64,000 bases of DNA, from the sequence record MK327943.1; one strand, written 5' to 3'. The position numbers and the translations under genes are program-made. The notes beneath the pieces are model-generated. The model searched no databases and was not told the origin of the DNA. It worked only from the letters and a program-made list of their open reading frames with translations. Below are positions 5,984 to 51,519 of this stretch, piece after piece. This stretch comes from Escherichia phage vB_EcoM_G53. Position 1 is the stretch's first letter. Each line of letters begins with the position of its first letter.

Positions 5984-6163
5984 TTAACCCTTCTTAAGTA
6001 AGTCGTAAAAACCGCCGTTCACATGTTTAGGAGCAGAAACCCGACGAGTAGACAGACGATGACATTCAGGGCAAACATCGTTTTCTCGTTCAGAAATCCT
6101 TTTAATTTTTTCATATTCATGACCACAATCTTCAGATTGACATTTATAGTCGTATAACGGCAT
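5984..6163 (-). CDS. FmdB-like zinc-ribbon protein (59 aa), not in ORF track
   Basis: [18 protein letters not shown]...CPECH: two CxxC pairs; start ATG overlaps upstream stop (TAATG); stop 2 nt before the next ATG. Confidence 0.5.
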   Translation of the reverse strand: MPLYDYKCQSEDCGHEYEKIKRISERENDVCPECHRLSTRRVSAPKHVNGGFYDLLKKG

Positions 6164-6576
6164 TATTGTTCCTTAAAGTGAGCTTTCAACATTTGATACA
6201 AAGACCATGCCTGGTCGTTATTTTTGATAGTAATCGTCATCGCAGGAAATTCAGACAATTCGTCAAGTTCGCCAGAATCTTGCTCTTCAGACTCTTGATA
6301 TGGATTTCCAACTTCGTCAAAGAACTCTGCTTCATTCGTGGAGAGCCAGATAAAGTTTTCATCAAGAATATCACCACCTGTTGCGTATCCAACCATGCCA
6401 GTAGATGTCACAATTTTAGTAGGACGTCCAAGATGGTCAACATCTAATACTTTAAATGGTTCCATGCCAAGACGTCGTGCATAAATCCCATTATCAGTGT
6501 GGTCTTTAATAAACTCTTCTTGGGCACGTTTATCTTTAAATTGGTACCATGAGTTAACGCGGAATTTATTAGCCAT
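6163..6576 (-). CDS. hypothetical protein (start placed at MANKF)
   Basis: ORF 6163..6594; ATG at 6576 overlaps upstream stop (TAATG) with GGAAGGA SD. Confidence 0.45.
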
Positions 6577-19619: not shown

Positions 19620-19832
19620 CTATTTTAAACTTTTTCGAAATTTGCGTTTTTCTTGACGAATCTGTCGTTTAGTCGGACGTACAACAAATTTAACGAAGTC
19701 CACTTTGCCGTGTGGAAACTTTTCAGATGCTTCGCAGTCCATCATTAGTTCCCATCCTTCCAGAATAAGAGCTTTCCATTGTGTAGTTGATGCAAATTCG
19801 TATGTTGATGGTTTAAACACAGTTGAATACAT
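19620..19832 (-). CDS. small basic protein, RPTKRQ-motif family (start placed at MYSTVF)
   Basis: C-terminal VRPTKRQIRQEKRKFRK shared with 45364..45543 and 45968..46138. Confidence 0.4.
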   Translation of the reverse strand: MYSTVFKPSTYEFASTTQWKALILEGWELMMDCEASEKFPHGKVDFVKFVVRPTKRQIRQEKRKFRKSLK

Positions 19833-19833
19833 A

Positions 19834-20046
19834 TTATCCTCTGAAATCAGCTTCAAAAACTTTCTCGTCATTAATAAATGCTTTAACTAATGCATTGTTC
19901 ACTTCAGCAAGTTGTACCGTAACCCACTCGATTTCTTCGCGATCACCTGATAACATGATATCTTTAGTGAACATCTCACCGCTTTTAAACCAACCGATAA
20001 AAGTAACTTTAGTTAATTTGCTCATATTTCCTCGCAAAATGCCCAT
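19834..20046 (-). CDS. small hypothetical protein
   Basis: 70-aa ORF. Confidence 0.4.
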   Translation of the reverse strand: MGILRGNMSKLTKVTFIGWFKSGEMFTKDIMLSGDREEIEWVTVQLAEVNNALVKAFINDEKVFEADFRG

Positions 20047-20339
20047 TCAGCGTGATAAACTGTAGCGCCTTTAGTATCATTCATTTGAACTACATCTACC
20101 GGAGAAATTACTCGATAGAGACGTGGTTCACCTCCATAAGAGCGTGCTGCTCGTCCTGCATAAATCTTTGCTAAACCGATATCTTCAGTAAAGAATACAC
20201 GATCCAAGTTTTTCTTACGTCCAGTTTCAGACAGAACTCCTGTTTCTTCAGGAGGACAAAGCATGTTTTCGATGTTAGCTGAACTACTTGAACCGTGATA
20301 AAAAATCTTAAATTCTGCTTTACAATCGATGGTTTTCAT
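20022..20339 (-). CDS. hypothetical protein
   Basis: 105-aa ORF downstream of an early promoter with a GGAG SD. Confidence 0.45.
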   Translation of the reverse strand: MKTIDCKAEFKIFYHGSSSSANIENMLCPPEETGVLSETGRKKNLDRVFFTEDIGLAKIYAGRAARSYGGEPRLYRVISPVDVVQMNDTKGATVYHAEWAFCEEI

Positions 20340-20394: not shown

Positions 20395-20769
20395 TTAAAA
20401 ATGTAATTTAGATATATCTGCGTTGATTTCGTTTTGGTTTGCGTCATATGCAATTAAACGAACCGCTTTAGATGGGTCATTCAATGCATAGAAATGATGG
20501 AACATTGCTCGAACGATATCACCATTTACGAGTTCTACCTGGATAGGAGAACCTTTTTCGAGTTGGAAATGTTCGTAAGCTTTGATGGTTCGTAGATAAT
20601 CAAGTTTTTGATTTCCAGCTCCAACTATTTGTACGATACGTTTGCCTGTGTTTTCCATACGAGATACAATAGTTTTAGGAGCAAGAATAACGTAGGTTGC
20701 CAGCGGAGAAACTACTTCAACAGTTGTGTTTTCGGTGATTGCAGTAAAAATTGCTTGAGACATATTCAT
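20395..20769 (-). CDS. hypothetical protein
   Basis: 124-aa ORF. Confidence 0.45.
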   Translation of the reverse strand: MNMSQAIFTAITENTTVEVVSPLATYVILAPKTIVSRMENTGKRIVQIVGAGNQKLDYLRTIKAYEHFQLEKGSPIQVELVNGDIVRAMFHHFYALNDPSKAVRLIAYDANQNEINADISKLHF

Positions 20770-43009: not shown

Positions 43010-43303
43010 TCAACTGTAACGATAACATTCGTTAGCTTTACGTTTGGCTTCAGTATGAGAAGTATTATAATCATACTCTTCTTTACTGTAAACATCTTTT
43101 TTCAACTTACGAACTTCTTTGCGGAGTTGTCGATTCATTTCGTTCTTGACTTCAGAATCAACGCCTTTCATACGTTTCCATTTATCTGAGCGGAAGATGT
43201 TTTCAACCATGTCTTTGTGGCTAACACCGTCAGGAGCTTTACGCTTACCAAAATAGTCGTAATCGCGAACTTTCAAATCTTTACGACGATATGTTTTACC
43301 CAT
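43010..43303 (-). CDS. basic hypothetical protein (start placed at MGKTYRRK)
   Basis: ORF 43010..43330; ATG at 43303 with GAGGT SD. Confidence 0.4.
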   Translation of the reverse strand: MGKTYRRKDLKVRDYDYFGKRKAPDGVSHKDMVENIFRSDKWKRMKGVDSEVKNEMNRQLRKEVRKLKKDVYSKEEYDYNTSHTEAKRKANECYRYS

Positions 43304-43310
43304 AAGTACC

Positions 43311-43559
43311 TCAGAGGTTGATTGATACAACGCGTTTGATAAAATTCACTTCACTTACTGAAAGGTCTTTAAGACCGATTGATTCTAAACGCTGAGTAAG
43401 CGTCAACATCGGGATATAATCCCAATGAGTTTTATTTGCTTGATAAGTACGAACGCCATTAGCAATTTCAACGTTCAAATCAGAAATGGTAATGAATATC
43501 GGACGTTCGTTATTTACATTAAGAGATAGAACAACTTTCTTTGAATCTAAACTAATCAT
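43311..43559 (-). CDS. small hypothetical protein
   Basis: 82-aa ORF. Confidence 0.4.
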   Translation of the reverse strand: MISLDSKKVVLSLNVNNERPIFITISDLNVEIANGVRTYQANKTHWDYIPMLTLTQRLESIGLKDLSVSEVNFIKRVVSINL

Positions 43560-44850: not shown

Positions 44851-45324
44851 TCATTTAAGCGATTTCCTCAGTTGTTTTTTAAATGACGTTACCATTTTAG
44901 CTTTGGTATCGTCTTCATTATAACTAAAACCGTTTGAAAGCATTTCTGCAATCATTTCTTCTTTAGCTAATCTTGAGAACTCTTTAGTTTTGTCCGGAAC
45001 AAAATTAGGATGGATGTTATTAGCAGAATAATCTTGTTTCAAATAAGCAAGAAGAGCTTCAAGCCATTCGAGGTAGTCGACATCACGACCTTTAAGACCA
45101 GAACGGTTGAACTTATGCTTCATTTGACCTTCTGCTGCGTTGCACAGATTACAGAGTAACCCACGAACTCTACCTGCTTTTGGCCCGTTTAATTCGTGGT
45201 CGTGGTCAAGATGGTTACCTTGAACATCAGGGTCTAATTCACGGTGGCAAATAGGACACTTACCGTTCTGTGCATCATAAAATTTTTGTTTTTCTTCTTT
45301 GTATAATTTGCCAGATAATAACAT
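44851..45324 (-). CDS. 49: endonuclease VII (Holliday junction resolvase) gp49
   Basis: 157-aa ORF; zinc/HNH-like motifs CPICHRELD...NHLDHDHELNG...CNLCN; same length as T4 EndoVII. Confidence 0.85.
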   Translation of the reverse strand: MLLSGKLYKEEKQKFYDAQNGKCPICHRELDPDVQGNHLDHDHELNGPKAGRVRGLLCNLCNAAEGQMKHKFNRSGLKGRDVDYLEWLEALLAYLKQDYSANNIHPNFVPDKTKEFSRLAKEEMIAEMLSNGFSYNEDDTKAKMVTSFKKQLRKSLK

Positions 45325-45330
45325 AATAAA

Positions 45331-45361
45331 CCCTTACCATATATAGATAAGGGTATTTATA
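45331..45361 (-). promoter_or_regulatory. gene 49 control region: late promoter TATAAATA plus SD-sequestering hairpin
   Basis: TATAAATA at 45354..45361 (minus); mRNA hairpin ccctta-N11-taaggg whose 3' arm carries the SD-like AAGGG 7 nt before the ATG. Confidence 0.55.
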
Positions 45362-45363
45362 AT

Positions 45364-45543
45364 TTAGTAAACGTTATAAAAGTCTCGATGAAAACGTTTA
45401 TACTGTCGAATCATTCTTTTAGTAGGACGTGTTACCGAAATGATTGAAGTCCTCATGTTTGGATTGTTTGGAGCCCCAATCATAATAAATTTCCAGGATT
45501 TTTGGCCGTTTGTTCTTTCGCCATAAAATAGTTCAGTTTTCAT
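45364..45543 (-). CDS. small basic protein, RPTKRQ-motif family (59 aa), not in ORF track
   Basis: MKTELFYGERTNGQKSWKF...VTRPTKRMIRQYKRFHRDFYNVY; AAAGG SD. Confidence 0.4.
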   Translation of the reverse strand: MKTELFYGERTNGQKSWKFIMIGAPNNPNMRTSIISVTRPTKRMIRQYKRFHRDFYNVY

Positions 45544-45552
45544 AATAAACCT

Positions 45553-45966
45553 TTAACTTAAACGTCTTTCTAAATATTCAACGTATTCCGCTGCGGCTTG
45601 CATCAGATTACCTTCATAACCGTCATTATTTTCTTGGGCGGCTAATTTAGCTAAAGCATAAGAAATACGTTCACCTTCGAATTCGCCAAGTCCACCATCA
45701 CAAACTACTTGGTCAATTTCTTCGAGTTCATCTATTGAATGGGATTCCCAGAAGCACCAAAGAGAAGTATCACGGTCATAGATGCAAAGTTTCTCACCTG
45801 TGTTCAACATCACTTCAATAATGCCATGGTCGCCATAACCATCTTCGGTAGTAGTACCAATTACCTTGATGATCGTATCTTTCTTTAATTCAGGAAACTT
45901 GACTTGTAGTTCTTCATCTTCTTTAACAATCTTGAACCATTTACCGCGAGTTTCAGAAATATTCAT
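45553..45966 (-). CDS. hypothetical acidic protein (start placed at MNISETRGKW)
   Basis: ORF 45553..46104 trimmed to the ATG just after the stop of the upstream small ORF. Confidence 0.4.
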   Translation of the reverse strand: MNISETRGKWFKIVKEDEELQVKFPELKKDTIIKVIGTTTEDGYGDHGIIEVMLNTGEKLCIYDRDTSLWCFWESHSIDELEEIDQVVCDGGLGEFEGERISYALAKLAAQENNDGYEGNLMQAAAEYVEYLERRLS

Positions 45967-45967
45967 A

Positions 45968-46138
45968 TCAATATTCTCTATAAAAGTTACGATGAGAACG
46001 TTTAGCTTTGCGAAGCTGACGTTTAGTAGGACGAACTGTAAACGGTTGTCCAGAGAAAAAATTCGGATCGGTTTTAATAAGCAAATACCAATCATGCTTG
46101 CCATTTTTTAATAAACGGTACAATAATTTAACTTGCAT
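45968..46138 (-). CDS. small basic protein, RPTKRQ-motif family (56 aa)
   Basis: ORF-track start at 46165 is a TTG; ATG at 46138; C-terminal VRPTKRQLRKAKRSHRNFYREY. Confidence 0.4.
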   Translation of the reverse strand: MQVKLLYRLLKNGKHDWYLLIKTDPNFFSGQPFTVRPTKRQLRKAKRSHRNFYREY

Positions 46139-46266
46139 AATAATCTCTTCCCATCTCCATATCAATTAATTCATTTATTGAAGGTTCATCATAACACGTT
46201 TCTTCGTCGTTGTAAACTGTTTCGACGTCCGGCTCGACTGTCTCCCATCGAGCCGAATACCATGGC

Positions 46267-46623
46267 TTAACCCCGGAGTTTATTGAGCTCTTCATAATCA
46301 ATCCAGGATTCTAGCCCTGACGGCAGGTCACATTCAATGTTCCACAGAAGCTCTTCAATGGCTTGCAGGCGATTATATTCTTCAACGGTAATGGTAACCA
46401 TTGGTGCAACCGGTTCTGCCTTTTTAACCATCATGTCGTTCATCAGGACGTAAAGGTCATCACGAACGACAGTGTCGTTCCATCCCCATGATTTGGCTTC
46501 GTAAGCTAATGATGAAGGGAGCACATTTAAAACTTCAATAATAGTTGGAGCATCAGGACCAAGTTCATTGGCACAAACTTCGTATACATCTTGGAAATCT
46601 TTAAGATTTAATGAATATGTCAT
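46267..46623 (-). CDS. hypothetical protein
   Basis: 118-aa acidic ORF. Confidence 0.45.
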   Translation of the reverse strand: MTYSLNLKDFQDVYEVCANELGPDAPTIIEVLNVLPSSLAYEAKSWGWNDTVVRDDLYVLMNDMMVKKAEPVAPMVTITVEEYNRLQAIEELLWNIECDLPSGLESWIDYEELNKLRG

Positions 46624-50991: not shown

Positions 50992-51519
50992 TTATGCGTG
51001 AACCGTCTTTAAACGTTCTTCAAATTTCCGAAGAGTACTAATACGTTCTGCTTTCTGTTTTGTATAGTTTGCAATACGTTCTGAAGTGAGAGCGTATCGT
51101 TCGTTTACTGTTTCTTTCATGAAGTCAGGGATTTCACGAGAAGCTTTAATTTCATCAAACTTATCGAGTACTGCCTGGTCTTCAGCAATTAAATTTTCGT
51201 ACATCTCGATATCTTTCTTGATGAAGTCGATATCTTCCTGGGTTACTTTGGATAAACGAGATGCTTTATCCTTTTTGTACTGCTCGTTAGTTTCACGAGA
51301 CCAGAATAATGTACGTTTTTTGTTAGTGTTTTTGTAGACTTCCACAATTCCAACTGAATCGATGATAACAATCCAATTCCAGCGAGATTTGAAAATCTGA
51401 CCTCCGTCCACGGTAATCTCGTTACCATAAGCAACGTCATTAAAGAACTTACTTTGTGCTTCAGATTTAAATTTACCGTCGTTATAATTTACCAGGTTGA
51501 AAATATCTTTAGCGTTCAT
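50992..51519 (-). CDS. hypothetical protein
   Basis: 175-aa ORF downstream of a GTTTAC/TATTAT promoter. Confidence 0.45.
   Translation of the reverse strand: MNAKDIFNLVNYNDGKFKSEAQSKFFNDVAYGNEITVDGGQIFKSRWNWIVIIDSVGIVEVYKNTNKKRTLFWSRETNEQYKKDKASRLSKVTQEDIDFIKKDIEMYENLIAEDQAVLDKFDEIKASREIPDFMKETVNERYALTSERIANYTKQKAERISTLRKFEERLKTVHA

Follow-up and report, generated by a model that had tools for sequence, protein, structure and literature searches.

Three small ORFs of the window (the whole stretch of 64,000 nucleotides analysed here), located at 19620..19832, 45364..45543 and 45968..46138, encode basic proteins with closely related C-terminal tails. What is this tail, and do the three genes make up a family of their own? 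The initial annotation considered them a new family, with a tail that looked able to bind nucleic acids and with no named T4 counterpart. We found that all three ORFs lie on the minus strand and carry the Pfam DUF7279 domain, which confirms that they are related small basic proteins. The reading that we favour, with a probability of roughly 80%, is that they are coding members of the TifA family in an RB69-like phage: ORF1 is tifA, and ORF2 and ORF3 are short paralogs that would bind RNA and have a target other than ToxN.

Results

The three ORFs belong to a family already described

Family membership was assessed with the Pfam model PF23945 (DUF7279, gathering threshold 24.5 bits). The scores of ORF1, ORF2 and ORF3 were 72.7, 53.1 and 54.5 bits, with E-values from 2e-20 to 3e-14, and thus all passed the threshold. 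When all stop-to-stop segments of the window were scanned with the profile, only these three ORFs were retrieved, the next segment having an E-value of 0.14. Because all three are above the Pfam threshold and are the sole profile matches in the window, their similarity reflects homology and not chance. Two weak matches, at 51041-51124 (E = 0.14) and at 43013-43345 (E = 0.21), were attributed to chance resemblance between basic helices, and no additional copy of the family was present in the remaining sequence (about 100 kb) of a complete genome with 99.6% identity.

ORF2 and ORF3 are 28-33% identical to ORF1 and 38% identical to each other. The alignment, which the initial annotation had suggested as a check together with a profile search, contains 13 invariant columns, including R52, P53, T54, K55, R56, R59, K62, R63 and R66 (ORF1 numbering), and supports homology as well. 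The element R-P-T-K-R-x-[IL]-R-x-x-K-R is common to the three proteins, and the motif first spotted corresponds to R52-P53-T54-K55-R56-Q57-I58-R59 of ORF1. In an alignment of 54 family sequences no variation occurs at T54 and R59, and conservation reaches 90% or more at P53, K55, R56, Q57 and K62.

ORF1 is assigned to PHROG 2375, ORF2 and ORF3 to PHROG 3272, and NCBIfam holds no model for any of them. An exhaustive search of a collection of 5.8 billion proteins with the three-ORF profile gave only 12 matches (E <= 1e-3), because the proteins are so short; a search of the same collection with the single ORF3 sequence gave only two close relatives. A broader profile collected 46 database relatives, all of which (46/46) carry PF23945. 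A search of a literature library for "DUF7279" returned no papers, and the word "paralog" is absent from both TifA papers (PMC10853763, PMC9391042). The family is therefore not new, since it is already present in Pfam and in the PHROGs. It is the known TifA (DUF7279) family, ORF1 is a known anti-ToxN gene, and the observation is mostly a rediscovery; ORF2 and ORF3 are minimal paralogs and thus new members of this known family.

ORF1 is the tifA ortholog

ORF1 (19620..19832, minus strand) encodes a protein of 70 aa (MYSTVF...VVRPTKRQIRQEKRKFRKSLK). Its DUF7279 domain, its identity to the RB69 and T4 proteins and its position next to dmd indicate that it is the ortholog of T4 gp61.4, now named TifA (ToxN inhibitory factor A). 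Compared with the published RB69 TifA (supplementary Table S2, PMC10853763), 61 of 63 aligned residues are identical (97%), and in tblastn the identity to gp61.4 of T4, T2 and T6 is 56% over the full length. This provides the named T4 protein that the initial annotation could not find. ORF1 differs from the assayed RB69 TifA by S16T, A50V and a tail two residues longer (EKRKFRKSLK in ORF1, EKRFKSLK in RB69 TifA); H41, P53, T54, K55, R56 and R59 are all present, and H41 is as in RB69. Codons R52 to K67 (19632..19679, minus strand) would encode the Pro-Thr helix cap and the basic RNA-binding helix, as suggested by the invariant columns and by the published TifA mutants. The pentapeptide RKSLK ends both ORF1 (19620-19637, minus strand) and gene 49, which encodes endonuclease VII (44851-44868, minus strand); this is probably a coincidence.

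The ATG of ORF1 is separated from the stop codon of dmd by 1 nt, the same layout as that of T4 gene 61.4 after dmd. Of the three ORFs, only ORF1 has this dmd-adjacent position, which corresponds to the dmd-tifA operon described for T4 (PMC9391042). The dmd gene (19834..20046, minus strand), whose product is the antitoxin against RnlA/LsoA, abuts tifA in the same orientation; it was recognised with the Pfam Dmd model (76.6 bits, residues 11-70) and from the dmd annotation in close relatives, and its real start is probably the ATG at 20025. Upstream of dmd are two ORFs of 105 and 124 aa (20022-20339 and 20395-20769, minus strand), which have no Pfam match and belong to phrog_2110 and phrog_10668, two PHROGs with no assigned function. 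The stop codon of the 105-aa ORF overlaps the likely dmd start in the sequence ATGA (20022-20025). In T4, gene 41 is found upstream of dmd instead, and thus the neighbourhood of dmd-tifA here is unlike that of T4. An assignment of the 105-aa ORF as an ADP-ribosyltransferase was dropped, Pfam and a PDB sequence search being empty.

The tail corresponds to the element published for TifA as a "Pro-Thr cap plus basic helix" (Guegler et al., PMC10853763). In RB69 and T4 TifA, the P53A/T54A or K55A/R56A/R59A mutations led to the loss of RNA co-purification, ToxN neutralisation and ToxN co-immunoprecipitation (PMC10853763). The tail of the three ORFs includes exactly these residues, which bears out its initial description as nucleic-acid-binding, and the near-identity of ORF1 to RB69 TifA suggests that ORF1 binds RNA through this helix. 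Synthesised RB69 TifA bound RNA with a KD of 0.36-2.3 µM; TifA preferentially associates with 16S rRNA, and a large ToxN-TifA-RNA complex is enriched in it (PMC10853763). RB69 TifA neutralises ToxN and restores plating on toxIN hosts (PMC9391042, PMC10853763), and natural as well as evolved substitutions of residue 41, which is in a loop at the predicted ToxN interface, alter the strength of ToxN inhibition (PMC10853763). The TifA homologs of JS98, VR7, EcS1, vB_EcoM_005, PM2 and CB4, none of which belongs to the T2/T4/T6/RB69 group, were inactive against all seven toxins assayed (PMC10853763). Because of this last result, the specificity within the TifA family is narrow, and membership does not predict the target.

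Two short paralogs flank the pin gene

ORF3 (45968..46138, minus strand; 56 aa, ending in ...TVRPTKRQLRKAKRSHRNFYREY) is located upstream of pin and matches phrog_3272 with an E-value of 5.8e-27. ORF2 (45364..45543, minus strand; 59 aa, ending in ...VTRPTKRMIRQYKRFHRDFYNVY) is located between pin and gene 49 and matches phrog_3272 with an E-value of 3.8e-30. The predicted PT cap and basic helix motif spans codons R36 to R50 of ORF3 (45989..46033, minus strand), as placed by alignment, model and codon comparison, and codons R39 to R53 of ORF2 (45385..45429, minus strand), as placed by alignments and by synonymous codon differences from ORF1 and ORF3. The pin gene between them (45553..45966, minus strand) encodes PinA, the host Lon protease inhibitor (Pfam Inhibitor_I24, 158 bits, residues 7-137). 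The three genes are co-oriented and tightly packed: 1 nt separates the ORF3 stop from the pin ATG, and 9 nt separate the pin stop from the ORF2 ATG. Shine-Dalgarno-like sequences were read 5-10 nt before the ATG of ORF1 (GAGGA), ORF2 (AAAGG) and ORF3 (GGGAAGAG), in agreement with the initial proposal of one RBS per ORF. A 183-aa mechanical ORF (45553-46104, minus strand) is an artefact: it prolongs pin upstream across ORF3, in a frame that is not that of ORF3. The ATG at 45966 is where the PinA domain begins.

About 50 nt upstream of ORF3 a consensus scan gave a weak promoter-like site (46188..46216, minus strand; TTTACA, 17 nt, TG-TATGAT); such sites are not strongly enriched, with 13 observed for 7.5 ± 2.5 expected. 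On the other side, after ORF2 and directly upstream of the gene 49 ribosome-binding site, a hairpin (ACCCTTATCTAT...GGTAAGGGT) is located at 45330-45354 (minus strand), which we take to be the known T4 gene 49 translational-control hairpin. It is kept in T4, in PP01 and in every Mosigvirus variant, and it forms the right-hand boundary of the ORF2 deletions described below. The homolog of T4 gene 49.1 (46128-46301) belongs to phrog_2382 and has no DUF7279 match, and it was thus rejected as a family member. Two genes upstream of ORF3, a 118-aa ORF (46267-46623, minus strand) matches phrog_3402, annotated "antitoxin from a toxin-antitoxin system", over its residues 64-118 (E = 1e-32). The equivalent region of PP01 contains a 56-aa gene with the same antitoxin annotation.

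ORF2 and ORF3 share with TifA the Pfam domain, the PT/basic motif and a predicted fold of three strands and a helix. Unlike tifA, they are found beside pin and gene 49 and not dmd. Because they are 26 kb from ORF1 and flank pin, they are paralogs and not tifA orthologs.

The paralogs are predicted to lack the long loops of TifA

The AlphaFold2 model of ORF3, made with the 54-sequence alignment, has a mean pLDDT of 92.7 and contains strands at residues 2-9, 15-24 and 27-33, followed by a helix at 39-55 that begins directly after P37-T38. The ORF1 model (pLDDT 71.5) has strands at 2-6, 27-33 and 43-49 and a helix at 55-69; it reproduces the published TifA architecture of a sheet, a loop of about 20 aa and a helix. 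Its strands β1 and β2 are joined by a loop of about 20 residues (7-26), and β2 and β3 by a loop of 9 residues (34-42) that contains H41, these boundaries being approximate since the confidence of the model is moderate. Whereas ORF1 has both loops, as expected for a tifA ortholog, they are reduced to turns of 5 and 2 residues in the ORF3 model. ORF2 aligns like ORF3 with three extra residues, and its 38% identity to ORF3 and common PHROG suggest that it has the same fold.

ORF2 and ORF3 have 11-14 residues fewer than ORF1 and are highly basic (pI 10.8); unlike TifA, they terminate in a conserved H-R-x-F-Y sequence. They keep the strand-2 tryptophan and every residue needed for RNA binding in TifA. 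According to the models, they would consist of a minimal TifA core, three β-strands and a basic helix, without the parts implicated in ToxN recognition. A PDB sequence search with the family profile gave no match, and a PDB fold search with the ORF3 model gave nothing significant (best E = 0.9), and thus neither a solved structure nor a known RNA-binding fold was assigned to them. The BFVD fold search returned only small uncharacterised proteins of T4-like phages, the nearest predicted viral structures to ORF3 being proteins of 54-56 aa such as those of S16 and of Citrobacter phage Merlin (TM 0.9 for the latter).

The pin locus is polymorphic among T-even phages

The region is 99.7% identical to that of isolates of Mosigvirus, a group of RB69-like T-even phages. 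ORF3 was not found outside the Mosigviruses. Some Tequatroviruses, PP01 among them, have an ORF2-type gene immediately upstream of gene 49, and so do other T-even contigs of the viral collection. We compared the window (45364-46138) with loci L015, L016, L017, L018, L026, L027 and L028, and three arrangements were seen in Mosigviruses. Type A has the order 49.1-ORF3-pin-ORF2-49, as in the window; in type B, ORF3-pin is retained and ORF2 is cleanly absent; in type C, pin is deleted and a single hybrid gene has the body of ORF3 and the tail of ORF2, ending in NFYNVY. In an evenly spaced sample of ranked hits, the Mosigvirus entries comprised 7 of type A, 9 of type B and 3 of type C. Since about half of the Mosigviruses sampled have no ORF2, the gene is dispensable. 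One deletion in type A would be enough to give type B, and one to give type C, and type A is therefore probably the ancestral arrangement. In the hybrid genes the switch from ORF3 to ORF2 occurs inside a 9-nt sequence common to both (ACTTTTATA), the mark left by the recombination between short homologies that has been reported in T4 (PMC9391042).

T4 has no intact ORF2-type gene. We compared its pin-49 region (L003:6840-7420) with that of PP01 (L002:2040-2740) and with the window (45310-45990). Relative to PP01, a deletion of 137 nt in T4 takes out the stop codon of pin together with about 42 paralog codons, and pin is fused in frame to the last 15-16 codons of the paralog (...MIQQYKRLHQMFYNT), the resulting T4 Pin having 161 aa. 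Within this protein the PinA domain of Pfam spans residues 4-141, and the paralog-derived tail is outside it. T4 Pin thus ends in what is left of an ORF2-type TifA paralog.

A gene for a 60-aa DUF7279 protein (6001-6183) was also found at the edge of an integrated element in Vibrio chromosomal contigs (L019-L022), between the gene for a PvuRts1I-like/SRA restriction enzyme and a phage integrase gene; the cargo beyond is variable. The family thus extends outside the lytic T4-like phages.

Coding capacity and alternative explanations

According to the initial annotation, the motif could also be the translation of a conserved nucleotide element within ORFs that are not expressed. A stretch of 12 identical nt common to ORF2 and ORF3 (CGTCCTACTAAA) would fit such an element, but the motif varies at synonymous positions: among the copies one arginine is encoded by CGA, AGA or CGT, the proline is encoded by CCG or CCT, and in the three ORF pairs 5/10, 4/9 and 2/8 of the identical residues have different codons. 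The dN/dS ratio was 0.12-0.27 for ORF2 compared with its orthologs of other T-even genera (dS saturated), and 0.09-0.14 for ORF3 compared with divergent Mosigvirus alleles, the KAW3E185 allele differing by 16 synonymous and 8 non-synonymous changes (dN/dS 0.09). ORF2 and ORF3 are thus under purifying selection (dN/dS about 0.09–0.27). The ORFs remain intact across genera, and no frame-disrupting allele was seen in the loci examined, which number at least 20. Moreover, T4 tifA loses its function when its start codon is deleted and retains it with 55 nucleotides recoded (PMC9391042). Because of the synonymous codons, the dN/dS values below 1 and these T4 results, which all contradict a nucleotide element, we consider this scenario practically excluded.

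With coding genes as the preferred reading, the question becomes what ORF2 and ORF3 act on. They could be extra ToxN inhibitors that raise the dosage, a natural equivalent of the laboratory amplification of tifA in T4. They are in the same family and have the same RNA-binding helix, and dosage does matter, since T4 escapes plasmid-borne toxIN by amplification of dmd-tifA (PMC9391042). However, their identity to ORF1 is only 28-33%, they have neither of the long loops, one of which carries residue 41 and lies at the predicted ToxN interface, and the JS98 and VR7 homologs, although much closer to TifA, neutralised no ToxN (PMC10853763). The divergence of ORF2 and ORF3 (dS about 0.75, dN about 0.6) is also unlike that of a recent dosage duplication, and we regard this explanation as improbable. 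Somewhat better placed, though still unlikely, is a role of ORF2 and ORF3 as general RNA or ribosome binders serving phage gene expression or host shut-off and not counter-defence. Their pI of 10.8 and the retained helix would fit, as would the preference of TifA for 16S rRNA (PMC10853763), which may mean that the family began as ribosome binders. Against it, the presence, absence and hybrid formation of these genes among close relatives are a pattern typical of accessory counter-defence genes and not of core factors of expression. Moreover, the one member of the family that has been characterised is an anti-toxin, and the genes nearby are pin and an ORF with a match to an antitoxin-annotated PHROG.

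Discussion

We therefore retain ORF1 as tifA and ORF2 and ORF3 as short paralogs with another probable target. For ORF1, the orthology comes from this analysis and the mechanism from published work on a protein that is 97% identical over 63 residues. tifA would be an early gene co-transcribed with dmd, and its product would bind RNA by its Pro-Thr-capped C-terminal basic α-helix and contact the type III toxin ToxN by its β-sheet and loops. As proposed for TifA, it would trap ToxN on abundant cellular RNA, notably 16S rRNA, leaving phage transcripts uncut (PMC10853763). ORF2 and ORF3 would be ancient short paralogs in which the three-stranded sheet and the RNA-binding residues were kept and the residue-41 loop was lost. 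Because the RNA-binding residues are kept and the two long loops of TifA are lost, we infer that they bind RNA as TifA does, as the conserved motif suggests, and do not act on ToxN in the manner of TifA; most likely, they would tether or block some other RNA-directed defence factor of the host.

Several known systems resemble TifA. Dmd (T4 gp61.5) is also a small early T-even protein directed against a host RNase toxin, encoded directly upstream of ORF1 in the same operon, but it belongs to an unrelated Pfam family (PF17587) and inhibits RnlA directly (PMC9391042). The antitoxin ToxI neutralises ToxN as TifA does, the ToxN residues needed by TifA overlap the toxI pocket, and the binding of TifA and of toxI to ToxN is mutually exclusive (PMC10853763). 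ToxI, however, is an RNA and assembles with ToxN into a closed heterohexamer, whereas TifA is a protein that needs an RNA co-factor (PMC10853763). The authors of the TifA study drew an analogy with HIV-1 Vif-APOBEC3-RNA, in which a viral antagonist holds an antiviral enzyme with RNA as glue (PMC10853763); there is no homology in that case, the virus is eukaryotic and the enzyme is of another class.

ORF2, ORF3 and pin would constitute a tightly packed, co-oriented accessory cassette. The inhibition of Lon by Pin has been counted among anti-TA strategies (review PMC10286901), and dmd-tifA-adfA was proposed to be an "anti-TA island" of T4 (PMC9391042). As far as annotations go, the neighbourhood of pin is compatible with a second counter-defence cluster similar to that island. 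A more extended, tentative proposal, which we consider possible but doubtful, is that ORF2 and ORF3 represent a "mini-TifA" subfamily that extends to other T4-like genera and whose RNA-binding helix, the same as in TifA, traps a non-ToxN RNA-targeting effector. Together with pin and the antitoxin-PHROG ORF they would form a second anti-toxin cassette, and the flanking paralogs would drive its loss and reshuffling by short-homology recombination.

Altogether, a motif spotted in the raw sequence turns out to be the RNA-binding element that experiments have defined in a published counter-defence protein of phages, and the Pfam "unknown function" family DUF7279 is the TifA family. RB69-like phages have three TifA-family members and not one, two of them stripped of the ToxN-facing loops. 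The pin locus appears as a natural recombination playground, which bears on the gain and loss of accessory genes in T-even phages, and ORF2 and ORF3 are cheap candidates for new anti-RNase or anti-defence specificities.
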